In this document: positions 1,498 to 13,249 of the stretch, in pieces | How positions within the stretch are numbered: the first letter of the stretch is position 1 | Layout: every line of letters begins with the position of its first letter | Source of the DNA: a virus | UHGV virus genome: UHGV-0180761 | Direction: 5' to 3' (one strand) | Length of the DNA stretch: 13,254 nt | Translations under genes and position numbers: made by a program | Notes under the pieces: generated by a model | Told to the model about the DNA's origin: nothing | Database searches by the model: none | What the model saw: only the letters and a program-made list of their open reading frames with translations

Positions 1498-1854
1498 TTA
1501 CTGGTAATCCCCTTCTTCACCGTGGAACTCAAGATCAACCGTGCCTTCTTCGGCATTATGGTTCGCTTCTCCGTGCAGCCAGGCGGACGACAATACATAG
1601 ACCTGACCGTTCGCCAGCTCGGCAGTGATGGTCATCTCATCAGACGAGGTGATTTTGCTCACCGGAAAATTCTTCGGCACCTTGAAGGTCCCTTTGACAT
1701 AAGGCGCACGGTGAGTTTCCTTGCGGTCCACTGAACCGTCCAGGCCGATGATGTCATCATTGACCGTCCTGTTCATGGGCACCTCAATGCCGCCGGTCAG
1801 CGATAGCTGCTGACCGTCAATTTTGAAATAACAGGTTCCCCCGATACGGGCCAT
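1498..1854 (-). CDS. Hypothetical phage protein, 118 aa (possibly a tail-tube-like remnant of the structural module)
   Basis: Clean ORF whose ATG overlaps the stop of the upstream 490-aa ORF (TAATG arrangement), which suggests translational coupling. No diagnostic motif recognised; function is a guess from position. Confidence 0.5.
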   Translation of the reverse strand: MARIGGTCYFKIDGQQLSLTGGIEVPMNRTVNDDIIGLDGSVDRKETHRAPYVKGTFKVPKNFPVSKITSSDEMTITAELANGQVYVLSSAWLHGEANHNAEEGTVDLEFHGEEGDYQ

Positions 1855-3326
1855 TATGCAGACTCCTCTGAATACTGAAGACGGAACTGGTTAACCACGG
1901 CAAAAACACGCAACTGGTTAACATAGTCAGGCGGGAACAGCGTGTTCAGGCGGTTCGGATCGCTGGCATCACGCTCCACAACCAGGTACTGCTTAAACAG
2001 TTCGTAGTTTTCCACGATCCCCGCACGCTCAAGCTGACGGTAGGTTGCCAGCAGTTCCCCTTTGATCACCGCCGGAGTGACAATCGCCTGACCGGGACCA
2101 AAGCGGGTACCGTCACTGGCAAGCTTGTGACGCCCGTACTTACTGGTAATGACGGATTTCAGTTTGCGCAGTACATACGCGCTGGTATGCAGCGTCTCAC
2201 TGTCGAGGTAGCTGTTATCCGCAACCCCGTAAGCGTTTTTCCTGTACGTGGTGACATCACGCTGAATGCGCAGTACCCCGCTTTCGACATACGCCGTTGC
2301 CACGCCATGAGACAGCAGGGTCTGTTGTTCGGTCATCGTGAACCGTTTCCCCTTCGGCGCAGGCAGCATACCCACCAGCTCACCGGTCTGCGTGGGACGT
2401 GCCGGATCGTTGCGGATAAACACCGCTGCGCGGGCGGTACGGCTTGCCGCCAGCTCGTCGGCAGGCGTCTGGGTCTCTTTTTCGTACCCCGCCAGGGTAA
2501 TGTGCTGCTGGTTAAACTGGTCACCTGCGGTCACCAGTTCTGACAGCGTACCGGTCTTTGCCGTATACACATGACCATACAGCTGACGCGCATAGCTCCA
2601 GCGACCGCTGGTATCGTTCATCTCGGTCAGGCGAATTTCGTTTGCCCAGGCTGTCCAGTTCGGTTCTTTGGGACGAACCACCTCGCCGTCACATTCGGCG
2701 GCCTGCTCGTACAGGGCGATGATTTTTTTCCAGAGCCACTGTGCGCAGGTCAAATCATCCTGCGTTCCCCACTGGCGCTTTTTAGGGCTGAATACAACCG
2801 CATCAGGATGGCGAGTTAAAAACTCCTGTTCAGCCGTCTGCGTGTCCGGTTGCGAAGCGTCCGGACGAGAAGTTTTTTTATCTGACGGATCATGTTTTGA
2901 TTTTACTGACGGATCCCCGCCAGATTCTGACGGGTGAAAACCCGCTTTTTTGCCAGATTTCGACGCATCAAATTTTGACGGGTCAGATTTTGATGCGTCA
3001 GATTTTGACGGGTCAGAATCTGACAGTTGAGAAAATGCCGCTGCCTGAAGCTTCGCAACGTTAAGCTGATAAACATTCGACGCATTGCGGTTACCCTGGC
3101 GACGCGCCTTACGCGTTAACCAGCCTTCTGCTTCCAGCCGTGCGATAGCCGTTCTGACGGTACTCATTCCCGCGCCAATCTGGCGGGCAATGGTTTCAAT
3201 TGATGGCCAGCACACACCTTCGTCATTACTGAAATCAGCCTGGCGGGCCATAATTGCCACGCTGGATAATTTCATGCCTGATGCAGCGCAACCATCCCAT
3301 ACATAGCCGGTTAATTTAGTGCTCAT
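1854..3326 (-). CDS. YmfN-like chimeric protein (490 aa): N-terminal winged-helix replication-initiator-like domain, low-complexity repeat linker, C-terminal phage structural or packaging domain
   Basis: ATG at 3326 with AGAGG Shine-Dalgarno; N-terminus has an HTH-like segment (SIETIARQIGAGMSTVRTAIARLEAEGWL); middle is a D/S/K/P-rich repeat; the C-terminal 250 aa look like a phage virion or packaging protein, but I cannot tell sheath-like from terminase-like without a search. Confidence 0.7.
   Translation of the reverse strand: MSTKLTGYVWDGCAASGMKLSSVAIMARQADFSNDEGVCWPSIETIARQIGAGMSTVRTAIARLEAEGWLTRKARRQGNRNASNVYQLNVAKLQAAAFSQLSDSDPSKSDASKSDPSKFDASKSGKKAGFHPSESGGDPSVKSKHDPSDKKTSRPDASQPDTQTAEQEFLTRHPDAVVFSPKKRQWGTQDDLTCAQWLWKKIIALYEQAAECDGEVVRPKEPNWTAWANEIRLTEMNDTSGRWSYARQLYGHVYTAKTGTLSELVTAGDQFNQQHITLAGYEKETQTPADELAASRTARAAVFIRNDPARPTQTGELVGMLPAPKGKRFTMTEQQTLLSHGVATAYVESGVLRIQRDVTTYRKNAYGVADNSYLDSETLHTSAYVLRKLKSVITSKYGRHKLASDGTRFGPGQAIVTPAVIKGELLATYRQLERAGIVENYELFKQYLVVERDASDPNRLNTLFPPDYVNQLRVFAVVNQFRLQYSEESA
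2955..3026. repeat. Tandem repeat, about 5 imperfect copies of a 15-bp unit (GATTTTGACGGGTCA / GATTTTGATGCGTCA), inside the YmfN-like CDS
   Basis: Directly visible: agatttcgacgcatca aattttgacgggtca gattttgatgcgtca gattttgacgggtca gaatctgacag. Encodes pentapeptide repeats (SKSDA/SKSDP) on the minus strand; related degenerate copies continue upstream to about 2893. Confidence 0.8.
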
Positions 3327-3335
3327 GACCGACCT

Positions 3336-3674
3336 CTATTTCCCTGAATTTACGACGAAACTGTTCGAGCGGGCTGAAGCACTCATGCTCATAGCCTTCG
3401 CGGAGGTAGATAACACGTTGTGTTTCCGGCTCCCAACGAATGACTCTGACGGGCACACCGTAGTGATCTTTGAACCAGCGGTTAACTTGTCGCAAAGGAC
3501 TGTCTCCTTCTGCCGGTTGAAATCACCCACAGCCCACTCTGCAAAGCTGTGGGTTACAATTTCCCTGTCACCTGGTACATTTACTGCATAGCAATACTCC
3601 ACCTTCGCTTTTCCACCCGGTACAGGAAGCGCAATCAGTTGCGAGCGACGGTAGTGTGTTGTTAAACTGTTCAT
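3336..3674 (-). CDS. ymfM: YmfM-like protein (112 aa)
   Basis: ORF length equals K-12 YmfM (112 aa) and sits in the same position after the YmfL-like gene; ATGA start/stop overlap with the upstream gene. Identity by length and synteny only. Confidence 0.6.
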
Positions 3675-4234
3675 GCGTTAGTTTCTCCACAGTCACGACA
3701 CGCCACGGCGCCCGGAGCTGCACACTCGCGGGCGTCACTACTTTCTGAAACGCAAAAGATTTTGTAGACCAGTGCTGCATGCTCCTGCAGCTTCGAAATT
3801 GAGAGATACAGCTCATCGTTAATTGCTGTCTTCTCATGCGGTTCCACTACACCGTCTTCAATTGCTGAACGAATCTGTTTTGAATAACTGCCGATCTGTT
3901 CAATGACTTCCAGCAGGCGTTGGTTGATATCGGCGTTGTCCACATCCTCGACGTCAGGAAGAGACACAAAGACGCCATTTGCAGACTGCGCCACAGCATC
4001 AGCAATGAAGTGAGTGCCACCAGCACGCTGTAAAACCATTGCCCATCCCAGCGGGAAAATCTGATCGCCATCTGCACGAAGGCGGTTGAATAAAGCGTTT
4101 TCTGTTACATCGAGCCAGTCAGCCGCTTCAGCGTAACCACCCGGCAACGCCGCGATAGTTTTTCTGACAGCTTTCACGTACCACTCAGGCTGTTTTTCTA
4201 TTTTCCAGTGATGCTTACCCACGGTTAGCCTCAT
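3671..4234 (-). CDS. ymfL: YmfL-like protein (187 aa), function unknown
   Basis: First gene downstream of cro on the minus strand, coupled to the YmfM-like gene by an ATGA overlap; C-terminal CxxC pair ([17 protein letters not shown]). Name by synteny and length (K-12 YmfL about 189 aa). Confidence 0.6.
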
Positions 4235-4265
4235 CGTTCTGTGGTTAAAAATTGAAAGTGTTCTG

Positions 4266-4466
4266 CTAATCTTTCGGATAGATATCCGGTCTTAAGTCAG
4301 ATTTCGTAATTGCACCTGACGTGCATTGCTCAAGTTTTTTAGCCAGCACAAAACTGGCTTTTTTATAGCCATTGAAAACCAGCCGTAAGTAGCCAGGTGT
4401 TGAGCCAACTTTTCCGGCCAACTCGCCCTGCTGTTCTTTGGTTAAAGAGTCCCAATACGCTTTCAT
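4266..4466 (-). CDS. croE: Cro-like repressor (66 aa)
   Basis: Short form MKAYWDSLTKEQQGELAGKVGSTPGYLRLVFNGYKKASFVLAKKLEQ with an HTH; GAGG Shine-Dalgarno upstream of ATG at 4466; divergent from the cI-type repressor across an operator region. The 167-aa ORF in the track is an artefactual extension through the operators. Confidence 0.75.
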   Translation of the reverse strand: MKAYWDSLTKEQQGELAGKVGSTPGYLRLVFNGYKKASFVLAKKLEQCTSGAITKSDLRPDIYPKD

Positions 4467-4468
4467 AC

Positions 4469-4493
4469 AATATGTACCTCCGGTGTACATATT
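4469..4493. promoter_or_regulatory. Operator-like palindrome AATATGTAC-N7-GTACATATT (OR site)
   Basis: Perfect 9-bp inverted arms directly upstream of the cro start, in the cro/cI intergenic region. Confidence 0.55.
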
Positions 4494-4520
4494 ACATGAT
4501 TGAAATGAACCTTCAAGATA

Positions 4521-4541
4521 CTTGTACCTTAACGGTACAAG
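4521..4541. promoter_or_regulatory. Operator-like palindrome CTTGTACC-N5-GGTACAAG (OR site), overlapping a putative PRM-like promoter
   Basis: Perfect 8-bp inverted arms 16 bp upstream of the repressor ATG; TTTAAT at 4545-4550 is a possible -10 that would give a near-leaderless repressor mRNA (inference). Confidence 0.55.
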
Positions 4542-4556
4542 GGTTTTAATTTCGTT

Positions 4557-5231
4557 ATGAAAACAATCCATGACATCCGGCGGTCTAACGCCAGAAAACT
4601 GAGAGATGGTGTTGGCGGGAATTCTTCCTTTGCCACTATGATTGATCGCGAGCCAACCCAGACCAGCAGGTTTATGGGAGATGGTGCTACTAAAAATATC
4701 GGTGACAGCATGGCACGACACATCGAAAAATGTTTCGACCTGCCTGTCGGATGGCTCGATCAAGAACACCAGACAACGAACATCACAAAAAAACCTGATG
4801 TTTCAATCACTAATAAACAAATCACATTAGTCCCTGTCATATCATGGGTACAGGCCGGAGCATGGAAAGAAGTTGGATATTCTGAGGTTGATTTGAGCAC
4901 AGCAGAAACGTATCCCTGCCCTGTACCCTGTGGGGAAATGACTTATATCTTGCGGGTGATAGGTGATTCAATGATTGATGAGTACCGCCCGGGAGACATG
5001 ATTTTTGTCGATCCTGAAGTACCTGCCTGCCACGGTGACGACGTTATTGCATTGATGCACGATACAGGCGAAACCACCTTCAAAAGGTTGATAGAAGATG
5101 GGACACAGCGTTATCTCAAAGCGTTAAACCCAAACTGGCCTGAGCCTTACATTAAGATCAACGGTAATTGCTCTATAATTGGTACAGTGATTTTCTCAGG
5201 AAAACCAAGAAGATACAAAATCAAAGCCTAA
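4557..5231 (+). CDS. cohE: CI-type prophage repressor with C-terminal S24 (LexA-like) autopeptidase domain (224 aa)
   Basis: C-terminal S24 motif (VIGDSMIDEYRPGDMIFVDPE ... TFKRL, Ser/Lys dyad context); divergent from cro; length equals K-12 CohE (224 aa). Confidence 0.85.
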   Translation: MKTIHDIRRSNARKLRDGVGGNSSFATMIDREPTQTSRFMGDGATKNIGDSMARHIEKCFDLPVGWLDQEHQTTNITKKPDVSITNKQITLVPVISWVQAGAWKEVGYSEVDLSTAETYPCPVPCGEMTYILRVIGDSMIDEYRPGDMIFVDPEVPACHGDDVIALMHDTGETTFKRLIEDGTQRYLKALNPNWPEPYIKINGNCSIIGTVIFSGKPRRYKIKA

Positions 5232-5243
5232 TCAATGTTTATG

Positions 5244-5266
5244 AACCTGCTTCGGCAGGTTTTTTT
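5244..5266 (+). terminator. Rho-independent terminator downstream of the repressor gene
   Basis: AACCTGC-TTCG-GCAGGTT hairpin followed by a run of 6-7 T, starting 13 nt after the repressor stop codon. Confidence 0.7.
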
Positions 5267-5270
5267 ATAC

Positions 5271-5303
5271 TTGACAATGTACCTTTGAGATACATAATGT
5301 ACC
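5271..5303 (+). promoter_or_regulatory. PL-like sigma70 promoter with two direct AATGTACC operator half-sites
   Basis: TTGACA (5271-5276), 16-bp spacer, CATAAT (5293-5298); AATGTACC at 5276-5283 and 5296-5303 overlap the -35 and -10, sharing the TGTACC core of the cro/cI operators. Confidence 0.55.
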
Positions 5304-5380
5304 CAAGCGAAACAACGAACAGGCAGGACGCCCACGAAGTAGCCGCCTGGGGCATATGAAGTCCAGGATGATTCGTTAGC

Positions 5381-5407
5381 AACAAAAAAGCGCCCTACAG
5401 GACGCTT
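5381..5407 (-). terminator. Minus-strand intrinsic terminator-like hairpin
   Basis: On the minus strand: AAGCG(T)CC-TGTAG-GGCGCTT followed by TTTTGTTG; lies about 240 nt downstream of the stop of the 144-aa minus-strand gene. Confidence 0.4.
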
Positions 5408-5465
5408 AGCTCTTTAACAATCTGGTCCCCATCAACAAGTAACTGATAACTTGAGGAGATGTGAA

Positions 5466-6143: not shown

Positions 6144-6364
6144 AGGTCCACCTCGCCTGATGTGGCTAAAAGCAGGCACATAACAGCTAAGTATTTTCAA
6201 CCAGAGAGAATCCTTAGCGTTGTGGTGAATGCGGCTCAGCGCACGCGGGTTAAGGTTGAGGCTGACAGTCGACCTTCTGTGGATACCCACCCGCCTGGTG
6301 TGCAACCTTCGCCAGGCACCGGGAGGCACCCGGCACCACAACTTTATGCTGTGTGTAGTCCTGG

Positions 6365-6410
6365 CGGTACCAGTTTGTACCCTTGCTTCCGGCTGGTACC
6401 GTCCTTTTTA
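6365..6410 (+). promoter_or_regulatory. Inverted repeat CGGTACCAG-N19-CTGGTACCG followed by a T-run; operator cluster or terminator-like element in a non-coding stretch
   Basis: Perfect 9-bp arms; the spacer contains TTGTACCC (same core as the cro/cI operators); followed by TCCTTTTTA. Lies in a roughly 400-bp GC-rich region with no convincing ORF. Confidence 0.35.
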
Positions 6411-6546
6411 CAAAACAGAGAAGAGCATCACCGGACGACGGGCTCATAACCCAATCCATCCGGGCGGCTGCCACCGCAGGTGTTCTTCTCTGTTTTGTGG
6501 AGAAACTAATCGGCCTTGCAGGGTCGATATGATGAGGAGCAGCAAA

Positions 6547-6909
6547 ATGGCTAGCGAACGCAGTACTGATGTGCAGGCATTTATCGGGGAGCTGGACGGC
6601 GGCGTATTTGAAACCAAAATCGGCGCAGTTCTCAGTGAAGTCGCTTCCGGTGTGATGAACACGAAAACCAAAGGTAAGGTCTCACTCAACCTGGAAATCG
6701 AACCATTTGATGAGAACCGTGTGAAAATCAAACACAAACTCTCATATGTTCGCCCGACTAACCGCGGGAAAATTTCCGAAGAAGACACCACCGAAACGCC
6801 GATGTATGTCAATCGCGGTGGTCGCCTGACTATTCTGCAGGAAGACCAGGGACAGTTACTGACTCTTGCCGGTGAACCTGACGGAAAACTCCGCGCAGCA
6901 GGTCGTTAA
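6547..6909 (+). CDS. YfdP-like prophage protein (120 aa), function unknown
   Basis: Start set at ATG 6547 (GAGGAG 8 nt upstream) rather than the 226-aa track ORF; 120 aa and position upstream of a YfdQ-like gene match the CPS-53 yfdP-yfdQ-yfdR arrangement as I recall it. Confidence 0.55.
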   Translation: MASERSTDVQAFIGELDGGVFETKIGAVLSEVASGVMNTKTKGKVSLNLEIEPFDENRVKIKHKLSYVRPTNRGKISEEDTTETPMYVNRGGRLTILQEDQGQLLTLAGEPDGKLRAAGR

Positions 6910-10865: not shown

Positions 10866-11705
10866 CTATCTAAATCTAACCTCACAAAACCAGTTATTTT
10901 CCGAGAGACAACTATAGAGTGCGGATTGCCAAGAATTTAAGCTTACCGATTTTTTTCCAGCTGCGGTTTCAGTCAAGTATTTTTTTAACTCGATACTCCC
11001 CCCCCCATCGTAAATTCTCTTTGCGATATATTCAATGCTCGCTAGTTCTTCAGCTGCATGTGATGCATAAAGAGCAGACAACTTAAATGCCTTAAAGTGA
11101 TACTTCATACGTTTAGCTAAAAGTGGGGGGCAATCTTCAGGTGGCTCTACATAAAACTCTATCGCTACAGGAATAGATTCCCGTATTTTTGCCTTAACCC
11201 AAACAAATGCTTCTACATCATCGTAATATGGGTGCAAAGTTTCTTCTTCTGAGCAAATTGGGATATCTTCGCTCTTTGTTTTATTACAATCCTGACAGGC
11301 TGGTATAAGATTAAAAGGCGATACAGCCAATGATGGAAAATGTGCTTTAGGTAAGTGATGATCTAATGTCGATACTACTCTTTGAGAACATAGTGGGCAT
11401 CTTCCATGATCTGGAAGTGACATTAACTTGTCATAATAGATACGCCCTGGGGCTAATTTCTTAGCCATTCTGCTTGTATAGACAACCTTCATTTCGTCAA
11501 CTGTAACAACAGTGGCAACATTGTCTTTAGGCAAAATTGTATGTAATTGTGCAATTGATACTTTTGCATCAAATTCTATTGAGGAATCTTCTATTTCTTG
11601 AGAACATGCTATAAGCCTCCTCTTTAAATCTTCATCGCGAACTCGATCAATGCATGCATTAAATACATCCAACGCACTATCATTCGGTTTTAAGAGTTTT
11701 TTCAT
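10866..11705 (-). CDS. HNH endonuclease-domain protein (279 aa), second gene of an ATPase-nuclease operon
   Basis: Zinc-finger HNH signature CPLC(103-106) ... DHHLPK(115-120) ... N132 ... CQDCN(137-141); the ATG overlaps the stop of the upstream ATPase gene (ATGA), so the two are translationally coupled. Confidence 0.8.
   Translation of the reverse strand: MKKLLKPNDSALDVFNACIDRVRDEDLKRRLIACSQEIEDSSIEFDAKVSIAQLHTILPKDNVATVVTVDEMKVVYTSRMAKKLAPGRIYYDKLMSLPDHGRCPLCSQRVVSTLDHHLPKAHFPSLAVSPFNLIPACQDCNKTKSEDIPICSEEETLHPYYDDVEAFVWVKAKIRESIPVAIEFYVEPPEDCPPLLAKRMKYHFKAFKLSALYASHAAEELASIEYIAKRIYDGGGSIELKKYLTETAAGKKSVSLNSWQSALYSCLSENNWFCEVRFR
10998..11006. repeat. Homopolymeric C9 tract (G9 on the coding strand) inside the HNH gene
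   Basis: Directly visible: ctccccccccccatc at 10996-11009; encodes Gly234-Gly236 of the HNH protein. Confidence 0.9.
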
Positions 11706-13249
11706 GATTGGTTTCTCTTAATTAAAAACAAAGCCCGCAAAATACCTCTAGCTTCAATTCCAAGTTGCCCATTGAAATTTTGCACAGCTGAATCGTAATC
11801 TTCGAATTTATTTACAGCATCGTCAAGAAGATTATGGAATCCAGAGTCGGTATTTTCCAATCCAAATACCTCCCTCGTTAGTATACCCACATTTTCACCG
11901 AAAGATTCTGTTTCTAGCCTTTCTACTTTAGACAAGTAGCCACTACGCCACAACTTCCACGTACAGCTTCGAGGAACTTCCTGGAGAACTACAGGAGAGT
12001 GGGTAGCTATTATAGATACTGCATTCCTATTAATTAATAAATCAGAAAGAGACCTTACAAAAGCTGATAATAATGGTGGATGGAGATGAGCTTCTGGTTC
12101 ATCTAAAAAAACCAAGCTTCTTTCTTCCATTGTCTCGACAAGTCTAGTGATAGTTAGCAATACAATTTTGTGCCCGGAACTTAAATTTTTGAATACTCTT
12201 CCTGCAATATCTTTAAACTCATCTTCATCTTGTCTATTCAATATTGATGCTACATTAATGTCAGCAAATACTGGATCTGACTCCAGCTTATCCACAGCCC
12301 TTTTCCAACGTTCAATTTTCCCTCCTGCCTTACAAGAAAGCATACTTTTCACGAATTCATTTTTCAATATAACAGGGCTTTTGGGCGGGAGACTTTTCTC
12401 ATCACCTTTTTTTACTCTTTTTAGTCCCACATATGAAAACTGTATACCTGTAGATTTATCTTTTTTTTCTGATAAAGGTTCTGTTTCATCAAAAGCGCTA
12501 AAAGTGACTGATACTACGTTAGAGAAAAGCTCACCAGCTAGTTGATCTTTAGATGAAAATTCACCGACTTTTGTTGGCGTTGTATTTTCGTCAATTAATG
12601 AACTAATCATATTATTCATTAAATGCGTTTTCCCAACACCATTCCGACCAATTAGCACATGAATATTTGTTGGGGGATTGCTCTCTGGTATCACTTCAAA
12701 ACTTAACTTAATACGGTCAGAGTCAGTGCCTTTCATCACTGGTGAGTTATATGAAAATGAATATTTTGAAAGTCGAGCACCTCCGTTCGCAAGTCGACGA
12801 AACTGTCCCTTAATAGATGTATGGCTGACGGATCTCAGAAGAGATATGCTAGTGACCCTCTCATTTATTGCTTTATTATATATATCTTCACTCAGAGCAA
12901 TATCATTAAGCGATGATAATATTTCATTTCGGATATCTTCTCCTAGTTCATTCAACACTTCGTAAAAACTATCATCTTGACCAACGGAGAAAAAACTCTC
13001 ATCTAGTTTTTCGAAAGCTTCAGGGATACTTGGTCTACTTTGACCTTTCGCCATATTCAATTGGCCAATTTTAGTAGAACCAATAATATTCTTATCCTTA
13101 TTTGAATCTATATAAACCAATGTATACATTGTAGAAAATTCAAACCAGTCATCCCAATTATCAGTAATTAAATAGGCACAGTTAGATTGTTCAACAGAGC
13201 ACATACTTCCCGCAGGCAGCACCTTAAATCTCATCTTTATCCCACTCAT
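11702..13249 (-). CDS. ABC-type (AAA_15/AAA_21-like) ATPase, 515 aa, with an unrecognised 200-aa N-terminal domain; first gene of the ATPase-HNH operon
   Basis: Walker A GRNGVGKT (aa 201-208, nt 12626-12649), signature-like LSSGHK (356-361), Walker B LVFLDEPE (379-386), H-loop ATHSP (415-419). In-frame TAA sits immediately upstream of the first ATG, 5 nt from the window edge, so the promoter is outside the window. Confidence 0.8.
   Translation of the reverse strand: MSGIKMRFKVLPAGSMCSVEQSNCAYLITDNWDDWFEFSTMYTLVYIDSNKDKNIIGSTKIGQLNMAKGQSRPSIPEAFEKLDESFFSVGQDDSFYEVLNELGEDIRNEILSSLNDIALSEDIYNKAINERVTSISLLRSVSHTSIKGQFRRLANGGARLSKYSFSYNSPVMKGTDSDRIKLSFEVIPESNPPTNIHVLIGRNGVGKTHLMNNMISSLIDENTTPTKVGEFSSKDQLAGELFSNVVSVTFSAFDETEPLSEKKDKSTGIQFSYVGLKRVKKGDEKSLPPKSPVILKNEFVKSMLSCKAGGKIERWKRAVDKLESDPVFADINVASILNRQDEDEFKDIAGRVFKNLSSGHKIVLLTITRLVETMEERSLVFLDEPEAHLHPPLLSAFVRSLSDLLINRNAVSIIATHSPVVLQEVPRSCTWKLWRSGYLSKVERLETESFGENVGILTREVFGLENTDSGFHNLLDDAVNKFEDYDSAVQNFNGQLGIEARGILRALFLIKRNQS

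Follow-up and report, generated by a model that had tools for sequence, protein, structure and literature searches.

The cro-cI locus and its prophage

The window, by which we mean the whole 13,254-base stretch of the virus genome UHGV-0180761 that was analysed, contains two divergent genes whose start codons face each other across a short spacer. The ATG of the cro-like gene lies at 4466-4464 on the minus strand and that of the cI-type repressor at 4557, and these positions, read from the sequence, give a spacer of 90 bp at 4467-4556, as claimed in an earlier reading that was made from the letters alone (the sequence-only reading). The cro-like gene (4266-4466, minus strand, 66 aa) is an open reading frame with weak HTH_3/YdaS Pfam matches, and its homolog is labelled ymfT in RefSeq relatives. 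The repressor gene (4557-5231, plus strand, 224 aa) carries a Peptidase_S24 domain (E = 1.5e-26), is named ymfK in RefSeq and encodes a protein 100% identical to the cI of SfIV. Its N-terminal helix-turn-helix includes the helix DREPTQTSR at aa 30-38. Against the PDB, the N-terminal domain gave a marginal match only, to chain 5d50_A, deposited as 'Repressor' (E = 0.0018), while the C-terminal half matched structures of the lambda cI C-terminal domain. The translation has Ala100-Gly101, Ser138 (in GDSM) and Lys176 inside the full-length S24 domain match and, by analogy with lambda cI and LexA, these would be the cleavage site and the catalytic dyad, respectively. Beyond cro lies a CII-like gene with a product of the CP76/186 family.

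The window is an e14/SfV-type lambdoid prophage adjoining icd. In RefSeq E. coli relatives, ymfK and ymfT are found inside a prophage adjoining icd, together with intE and xisE. The segment that holds cI and cro (4200-5400) is 98-99% identical to SfIV, SfV and PhiR29 and ~96% identical to cdtI, Ayreon and Stx2c phages, and the 141 bases at 4440-4580 are 100% identical to ymfK-ymfT of the cryptic prophage e14 of E. coli K-12 MG1655. The switch is common, being present at ≥95% identity in 1324 of 5426 complete E. coli genomes, about a quarter. In the GenBank record of SfV, positions 26377-26445 are annotated as 'putative operator region'; they map to 4472-4540 of the window and, in window terms, run from the start of the first operator described below (O1) to the end of the third (O3). 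Rfam holds no family for the cro-cI intergenic region or for the leader of the promoter downstream of cI.

A single putative operator motif on the promoters flanking cI

Two perfect palindromes are present in the spacer, Pal1 at 4469-4493 (AATATGTAC-N7-GTACATATT) and Pal2 at 4521-4541 (CTTGTACC-N5-GGTACAAG). Both had been noticed in the sequence-only reading, which described them as having different spacer lengths; that difference is an artefact. The two share one geometry, TGTAC-N7-GTACA, with GTAC cores 11 bp apart, and the spacers appear as N7 and N5 because each dyad extends inward or outward to a different extent. By their letters, both palindromes are therefore the same 17-bp putative operator, TGTACC-N5-GGTACA. 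We refer to the core of Pal1 as O1 (4473-4489, TGTACCTCCGGTGTACA) and to the core of Pal2 as O3 (4523-4539, TGTACCTTAACGGTACA). Their centres are 50 bp apart, ~4.8 helical turns, and the flanks of O1 (AATA...TATT) differ systematically from those of O3 (CT...AG). No further conserved dyad was found in the 90-bp cro-cI spacer.

The motif is strongly enriched in the window. Allowing one mismatch at most, we find TGTAC-N7-GTACA at three places (4473, 4523 and 5278), compared with 0.24 expected from shuffles, and all three matches lie on promoters flanking cI, those at 4473 and 4523 as exact dyads and that at 5278 with one mismatch. TGTACC by itself occurs 12 times, compared with 4.07 expected (0 of 200 shuffles reached 12), some of the copies falling at coding positions. 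We also scored all 13,238 positions of the window with a weight matrix made from 80 sites of other species, the window being excluded. In this motif scan, which the sequence-only reading had proposed as a check, the strong sites came out as the top four: 5278 (22.9 bits), 4523 (O3, 22.7 bits), 4473 (O1, 21.2 bits) and 5298 (14.3 bits). The sixth position, 4506 (8.8 bits), marks a candidate weak operator, O2 (4506-4522, TGAACCTTCAAGATACT), which abuts O3 at a spacing of 17 bp and is 33 bp from O1.

PR, PRM and the middle site

The promoter of cro, PR, is predicted on the minus strand with the -10 TAATAT at 4489-4494 and the -35 TTGAAG at 4511-4516, separated by a 16-bp spacer. Both elements are inferred from the sequence, and the candidate scores 8/12 against the consensus, under the threshold of a simple promoter scan. 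With a predicted transcript start at ~4480-4484, O1 spans roughly -7 to +10 of PR, including the edge of the -10 and the start. The Shine-Dalgarno of cro, GGAGG (plus-strand CCTCC, 4477-4481; minus strand), sits within the O1 spacer, 10 nt upstream of the cro ATG, and the O1 spacer is therefore constrained to CCTCC: an alignment of 24 spacer sequences shows no change in any of the four C columns and keeps the T in ≥90%. Equivalents of the PR -10 read TAATAT or CATAAT in enterobacterial members and CATCCT in Pseudomonas phage CF3a, and in the loci read they directly abut O1. The -35 varies among TTGAAG, TTGTAG, TTGCAG and TTGACG, with its CAAG columns invariant or nearly so.

The repressor promoter, PRM, lies on the plus strand at 4522-4550, with the -35 TTGTAC at 4522-4527, a 17-bp spacer and the -10 TTTAAT at 4545-4550, which ends 7 nt before the mapped start described below. 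The overlap of the second palindrome with a -35, which had been suggested before, is borne out, as O3, centred at -26 (4531), lies over the PRM -35 and spacer.

O2, the cro Shine-Dalgarno within the O1 spacer and a second operator at the downstream promoter were not part of the sequence-only reading. The spacer of O2 holds the predicted PR -35, and relative to the PRM start O2 is centred at -43 (4514). Relatives keep its left half, TG(A/T)ACC, almost without change; in Rosenbergiella the equivalent is a perfect dyad, AGTTCC-TTCAA-GGAACT, and in Salinicola and Pseudomonas it reads TGTACC-GTCAA-GGTTCT. In most relatives the matrix ranks the O2 equivalent third to sixth within its own locus. Part of this conservation could come from the PR -35 alone.

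The repressor mRNA is leaderless

The last T of TTTAAT stands at -7 from the repressor ATG (the hexamer occupies -12 to -7, with the 6 nt at 4551-4556 in between), which leaves no room for a transcribed Shine-Dalgarno, and the sequence-only reading had on this basis suggested a leaderless PRM-type transcript. Such a transcript is an already published result, from K-12. In the differential RNA-seq data of Romero et al. 2014 (Table S3), the start of ymfK coincides with the start of the gene, giving a leader of 0 nt, and ymfK of e14 is one of five E. coli mRNAs with leaders <10 nt, three of which encode prophage regulators (Romero et al. 2014). Because the window is identical to K-12 across this region, the repressor mRNA start can be placed at 4557 on the plus strand, the A of the ATG; this position of the PRM start rests on the literature. 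The supplement of the same study lists no start site for PR or for the promoter downstream of cI.

The gene start itself is well constrained. An in-frame TAA occupies 4548-4550, and therefore 4557 is the first possible start codon; cI homologs also align from residue 1. The arrangement is conserved, with an xxxAAT hexamer (mostly TNTAAT) located 6-7 nt before the ATG in 24 of 24 aligned relatives, those of the Pseudomonas and Salinicola lineages among them.

A second putative operator set downstream of cI

Downstream of the repressor gene, an intrinsic terminator of cI was found by scan at 5243-5269 on the plus strand (GAACCTGCTTCGGCAGGTT followed by a T-run); it is annotated in SfV and Ayreon and conserved in relatives. 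It is followed on the same strand by a strong promoter (5271-5298), with TTGACA at 5271-5276, a 16-bp spacer and CATAAT at 5293-5298, matching 11 of 12 consensus positions. This promoter, conserved in enterobacterial members and annotated as a promoter in phage Ayreon, points the same way as cI, toward yfdP/yfdQ/yfdR-like genes, xis and int, and we therefore regard it as the equivalent of PL. The recurrence of the TGTACC core at the promoter downstream of the repressor, claimed in the sequence-only reading, corresponds to the best-scoring site of the window, OL1 (5278-5294, TGTACCTTTGAGATACA, one mismatch), which lies in the PL spacer. Of the 28 loci that share the repressor's recognition helix (see below), 25 have OL1, at +704 to +748; it is absent from the Salinicola and Pseudomonas lineages. 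Twenty base pairs from OL1, a second site, OL2 (5298-5314, TGTACCCAAGCGAAACA), covers -7 to ~+10 of PL, whose start is predicted at ~5305. The left half of OL2 is conserved in most members; the right half is GAAACA in the window and GAAACA, GGAACA, GATACA or GTTACA across relatives. In the leader of PL, a stem-loop with arms at 5346-5350 and 5363-5367 is conserved and shows covariation; a hairpin and a boxA of the rrn type come after it.

The same reading had also placed a recurrence of the core around 6366-6400. A TGTACC does stand there, at 6376, but as a third operator cluster the region was rejected: the GTAC cores start at 6367, 6377 and 6396, the spacing is wrong, TGTACC at 6376 forms no operator-like dyad with GGTACC at 6366 or 6395, and the matrix scores are -10 or lower. 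The Rfam alignment of STnc100 covers 6189-6411 as a full-length match (43.1 bits, compared with a gathering score of 47), and the GGTACC copies lie in the arms (6363-6373 and 6393-6404) of its terminal hairpin, with TTTTT coming next. To judge from these letters, the GGTACC pair is a terminator-like stem at the 3' end of a putative STnc100-like RNA, unrelated to immunity.

Operator motif and recognition helix are conserved together

A scan of viral contigs with the DNA-binding domain returned only copies at 99-100% identity, which have no comparative power. A scan of species-dereplicated genomes, run with an alignment of N-terminal domains, yielded 48 loci, and tblastn searches with the N-terminal domain reached Edwardsiella phage EPP-1 (61% identity) and Pseudomonas phages (55-59%). 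Every locus whose repressor carries helix 3 of the type [DE]R[ED][PA]TQxSR (28/28) has two TGTAC-N7-GTACA sites with at most one mismatch, located at -84/-85/-87 (O1) and -34/-35/-37 (O3) from the repressor ATG. None of 23 loci with another helix 3, among them Endozoicomonas, Acinetobacter and phages RSK1 and BP-4795, has the two sites (Fisher p = 5e-15, a value to be read with the loci not being phylogenetically independent). The 28 loci come from Escherichia, Atlantibacter, Pantoea, Leclercia, Klebsiella, Erwinia, Serratia, Rahnella, Edwardsiella, Rosenbergiella, Salinicola and Phytohalomonas and include phages EPP-1, CF3a and zjk6. They span at least three bacterial orders, and the sites keep fixed positions within otherwise divergent sequence.

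Counted over the sites, the consensus is TGTACC-N5-G(G/A)TACA; at the central five positions, O3 and OL1 show free variation. In the 24-sequence spacer alignment, the invariant or near-invariant elements are the half-sites, the cro Shine-Dalgarno, the CAAG block, the AAT of the PRM -10 and the ATG. Cro, of the YmfT family, was co-inherited with the repressor in every helix-type locus examined. The features, their conservation and their co-occurrence with this repressor and Cro family are direct observations, and they bear out the earlier proposal of an immunity switch built on dyad operators with a TGTACC core, seen here at fixed positions in 28 loci with one type of recognition helix. The comparative data cannot, however, assign the motif to CI or to Cro, because the two are always inherited together.

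Alternative explanations

We considered three other explanations of the palindromes. They might be compositional, for example GTAC restriction-site palindromes without a regulatory role; GTAC and GGTACC are indeed palindromic themselves, and TGTACC also occurs at several coding positions. Chance would, however, have to account for the excess of complete sites over the shuffled expectation, with every one of them on a promoter, for their fixed positions across at least three orders and for a perfect association with the helix type. We regard this explanation as refuted by the comparative data and give it practically no credence. Action at the level of RNA, in which Pal2 and the T-rich run after it would form a terminator or attenuator before cI and a Pal1 hairpin would sequester the cro Shine-Dalgarno, has some surface support, as a terminator scan flags 4521-4541 followed by GGTTTTAATT as terminator-like and the fully transcribed palindromes fold at -13.0 kcal/mol (Pal2, z = -3.5) and -8.7 kcal/mol (Pal1). 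Pal2 was nevertheless rejected as an intrinsic terminator: the T-run is not conserved across the 24 relatives, the N5 loop is variable, and the palindrome lies upstream of the mapped repressor start at 4557. As to Pal1, the predicted PR start falls inside it, so that only one arm would be transcribed, in a 16-nt leader without structure. Where a half-site has changed, for example from GTACA to ATACA in O1 of SfV, the partner arm never carries a compensating change, which favours a protein site over a nucleic-acid hairpin, and the same motif occurs in the non-transcribed PL spacer. Taken together, these points make an RNA-level role very improbable.

The remaining alternative concerns the identity of the protein. 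Cro (YmfT) might be the sole reader of the motif, or different proteins might read O1 and O3, with CI acting on other, unrecognised sites; Cro is co-inherited with the motif in all helix-type loci, and the differences between the flanks of O1 and O3 could tune a differential affinity. On the other side, the 90-bp spacer offers no other conserved dyad that CI might use, lysogeny requires that both PR and PL are silenced, and the motif sites are the only conserved elements on both promoters. Moreover, the recognition helix of the repressor is conserved exactly where the motif is conserved. CI and Cro also share operators in all characterised lambdoid switches, to our knowledge. We therefore consider this alternative improbable.

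A model for the switch

We conclude, with a probability of about 0.85, that the region controls immunity, and with it the choice between lysis and lysogeny, in a lambdoid prophage of the e14/SfV type, where CI and probably also Cro act on TGTACC dyads. In this model, a dimer of the YmfK-type CI most likely binds the 17-bp operators TGTACC-N5-G(G/A)TACA, to judge from the sequences, and the YmfT-type Cro probably binds the same operators; we infer this pairing of proteins and sites, as well as the order in which the sites would fill. Occupancy of O1, which covers the PR -10 edge, the start and the ribosome-binding site of cro, would shut off the lytic promoter PR, possibly with the help of the weak site O2 over the PR -35. 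O3, on the PRM -35 and spacer, would limit repressor synthesis, either by autorepression or by Cro, and O2 might also serve in the activation of PRM. OL1 and OL2 would block the strong PL-type promoter of a leftward early operon that ends in xis and int. Transcription from PRM would start at the A of the cI ATG, as mapped in K-12, to give the leaderless repressor mRNA. Upon DNA damage, RecA-stimulated self-cleavage of the repressor at Ala100-Gly101 would, by analogy with known S24 repressors, lead to prophage induction.

Published observations on e14 agree with such a scheme. Three independent E. coli screens scored the ymfK gene as essential, and its expression amounts to ~0.4 mRNA per cell cycle, which fits a prophage repressor expressed from a weak, self-limited promoter. 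A co-regulated, stress-induced module of e14 genes comprises intE, xisE, ymfH and ymfJ on one arm and ymfT, ymfL, ymfM and ymfN on the other, with activity seen in fur mutants and upon oxidative stress; a module with two arms fits one repressor that controls both PR and PL. Our literature search returned no report of YmfK or YmfT binding here by EMSA, footprinting or ChIP, and nothing relevant for TGTACC combined with prophage, repressor or operator. Mehta et al. 2004 reportedly identified the e14 repressor, Cro and their binding sites by comparison with SfV.

Neither the 50-bp spacing of O1 and O3 nor the 17-bp spacing of O2 and O3 obviously fits the cooperative pairs of lambda. We speculate that the logic of the switch may differ from that of lambda, relying on tight negative autoregulation, via O3, of a leaderless and very low-abundance mRNA and not on cooperative positive autoregulation, and that the stem-loop, hairpin and boxA of the PL leader could act in cis as an antitermination element not described before, in a group of phages that lacks a recognisable N protein; we hold this combined proposal to be tentative and rather unlikely.

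The feature is of an already known kind, as the K-12 e14 switch is identical and the SfV counterpart carries an operator annotation in GenBank. What our analysis adds is the consensus TGTACC-N5-G(G/A)TACA with a map of five sites (O1-O3, OL1 and OL2), and evidence that the specificity and the layout of the leaderless promoter are shared beyond Enterobacterales, reaching Salinicola and Pseudomonas phages. The map could aid the annotation of immunity groups and the prediction of superinfection immunity among SfV, Stx2c and cdtI phages, and it could guide experiments on YmfK, scored essential in K-12. The practical value is small, and no new question is opened.

Comparison with known systems

The closest counterpart is e14 of K-12, in which the stretch of identity includes both operators, PRM and the first codons, the gene order is also cI, cro, ymfL, and PL, OL1 and OL2 are shared with the window. 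The two prophages differ in the genes that follow PL, which are ymfJ/ymfH in e14 and yfdP/yfdQ/yfdR-like in the window, and in the cargo adjoining icd. SfV, SfIV, cdtI and Stx2c phages have the same immunity type, with cI proteins 98.7-100% identical and with O3 and OL1 conserved. O1 of SfV and of Ayreon has ATACA as its right half in place of GTACA, leaving the first palindrome imperfect there, and Ayreon, cdtI and Stx2c phages differ from the window in having a PL leader of a second type.

Short or absent repressor leaders are also found in other K-12 prophages: racR of Rac and dicA of Qin were reported together with ymfK, with leaders of 0 nt and 3 nt, respectively (Romero et al. 2014). The repressor families and operators of racR and dicA differ from those of ymfK.

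With lambda, the locus shares the divergent cI and cro genes, 17-bp dyad operators over both promoters, an autocleaving S24 repressor, a site at ~-42/-43 from PRM (the position of OR2), a second operator set on PL beyond cI and a leaderless PRM transcript. The operator sequence is unrelated to that of lambda, and in place of three sites ~23-24 bp apart there are two strong sites and a weak one, with spacings of 33 and 17 bp. The site with the best consensus in the cro-cI spacer, O3, lies on PRM, whereas OR3 of lambda is the weakest repressor site. Unlike lambda, finally, the locus has an OL region with two sites and a CII-like protein of the CP76/186 family.

Operator sites and repressor starts in related phages

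The operator motif is also found outside the Enterobacterales, in the Pseudomonas phages CF3a and zjk6 and in Salinicola and Phytohalomonas, where the two-site layout is kept with the sites 50-51 bp apart. The leaderless geometry, in which the -10 hexamer lies a few nucleotides before the repressor ATG without room for a Shine-Dalgarno sequence, is likewise present in these lineages. In the DNA-binding domain their repressors share only ~50-68% identity, and their C-terminal parts are different; a PL/OL module (promoter plus operators) directly downstream of cI is absent there. In Edwardsiella phage EPP-1, the repressor CDS as deposited (1435-2169) begins 66 bases before the homologous ATG at 1501 and therefore traverses O3, the operator just upstream of the ATG; this start was probably mis-called, since the later ATG is where the alignment begins in all relatives. 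Within cI itself, TGTACCCTGTGGGGAAA (4922-4938, plus strand) reaches 8.9 bits against the operator matrix and ranks fifth in the window. As only its left half-site is good, this match probably arose by chance.

Candidate RNA elements downstream of the repressor

The leader RNA downstream of PL (5317-5385, plus strand) is conserved, occurring in e14 and SfV as well as in prophages from several genera. It contains a 5-bp stem on the plus strand (5346-5350 paired with 5363-5367) with compensatory changes: among 14 sequences, the variants CCTGG/CCAGG, CCGGT/ACCGG, CCCGG/CCGGG, CCCCA/TGGGG and TCCGG/CCGGA include double changes in four of the five base pairs. The loop is conserved as GGCRTAYGAAK, and the stem is enclosed by an invariant outer CGAA/TTCG helix. 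The leader has no match in Rfam; it could serve as an antitermination element of the nut/put kind or represent a small RNA. A second leader type, unrelated to that of e14 and SfV, is found in phages Ayreon and cdtI and in Stx2c phages.

Downstream of this stem-loop lies a hairpin, AAGCGCCCTACAGGACGCTT (5388-5407), which scores as an intrinsic terminator when read on the minus strand. It is directly followed by a boxA-like sequence, AGCTCTTTAACAA (5408-5420), matching the rrn boxA, TGCTCTTTAACAA, at 12 of 13 positions; in some relatives CGCTCTTTAACAA stands in its place. The order of hairpin and then boxA is that of rrn, unlike the order in lambda nut.

Further downstream, 6189-6411 (plus strand) matches the Rfam family STnc100 over its full length, with E = 1e-6 for the window and 43.1 bits, which falls just short of the gathering score (47), and its 3' end is a terminator-like hairpin followed by TTTTT. 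The match overlaps an ORF (6229-6909) that in RefSeq appears as two genes, a frameshifted hypothetical gene and yfdP.

Gene content and comparison with lambda and e14

The ymfL-like gene next after cro (3671-4234, minus strand) has a Pfam match to Phage_CP76, the family of 186/P2-type CII proteins, and not to lambda CII; any establishment promoter of cI would therefore follow different rules.

A 490-aa ORF (1854-3326, minus strand) joins a winged-helix, replication-protein-like N-terminal part (HTH_36, aa 30-70) to C-terminal phage tail-sheath domains (aa 234-481). The ORF resembles a deletion fusion of the kind seen in the chimeric ymfN of K-12 e14, suggesting a defective prophage.

In the prophage, the segment that separates int from the icd end carries two cargo genes (10866-13249, minus strand). 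One encodes a 515-aa AAA ATPase (PADLOC PtuA, E = 5e-195; PDC-M01A, E = 3e-210), the other a 279-aa HNH nuclease (PDC-M01B, E = 2e-106). The two genes form a Septu-like anti-phage defence module, which takes the position that lit and ymfD/E hold in K-12 e14.
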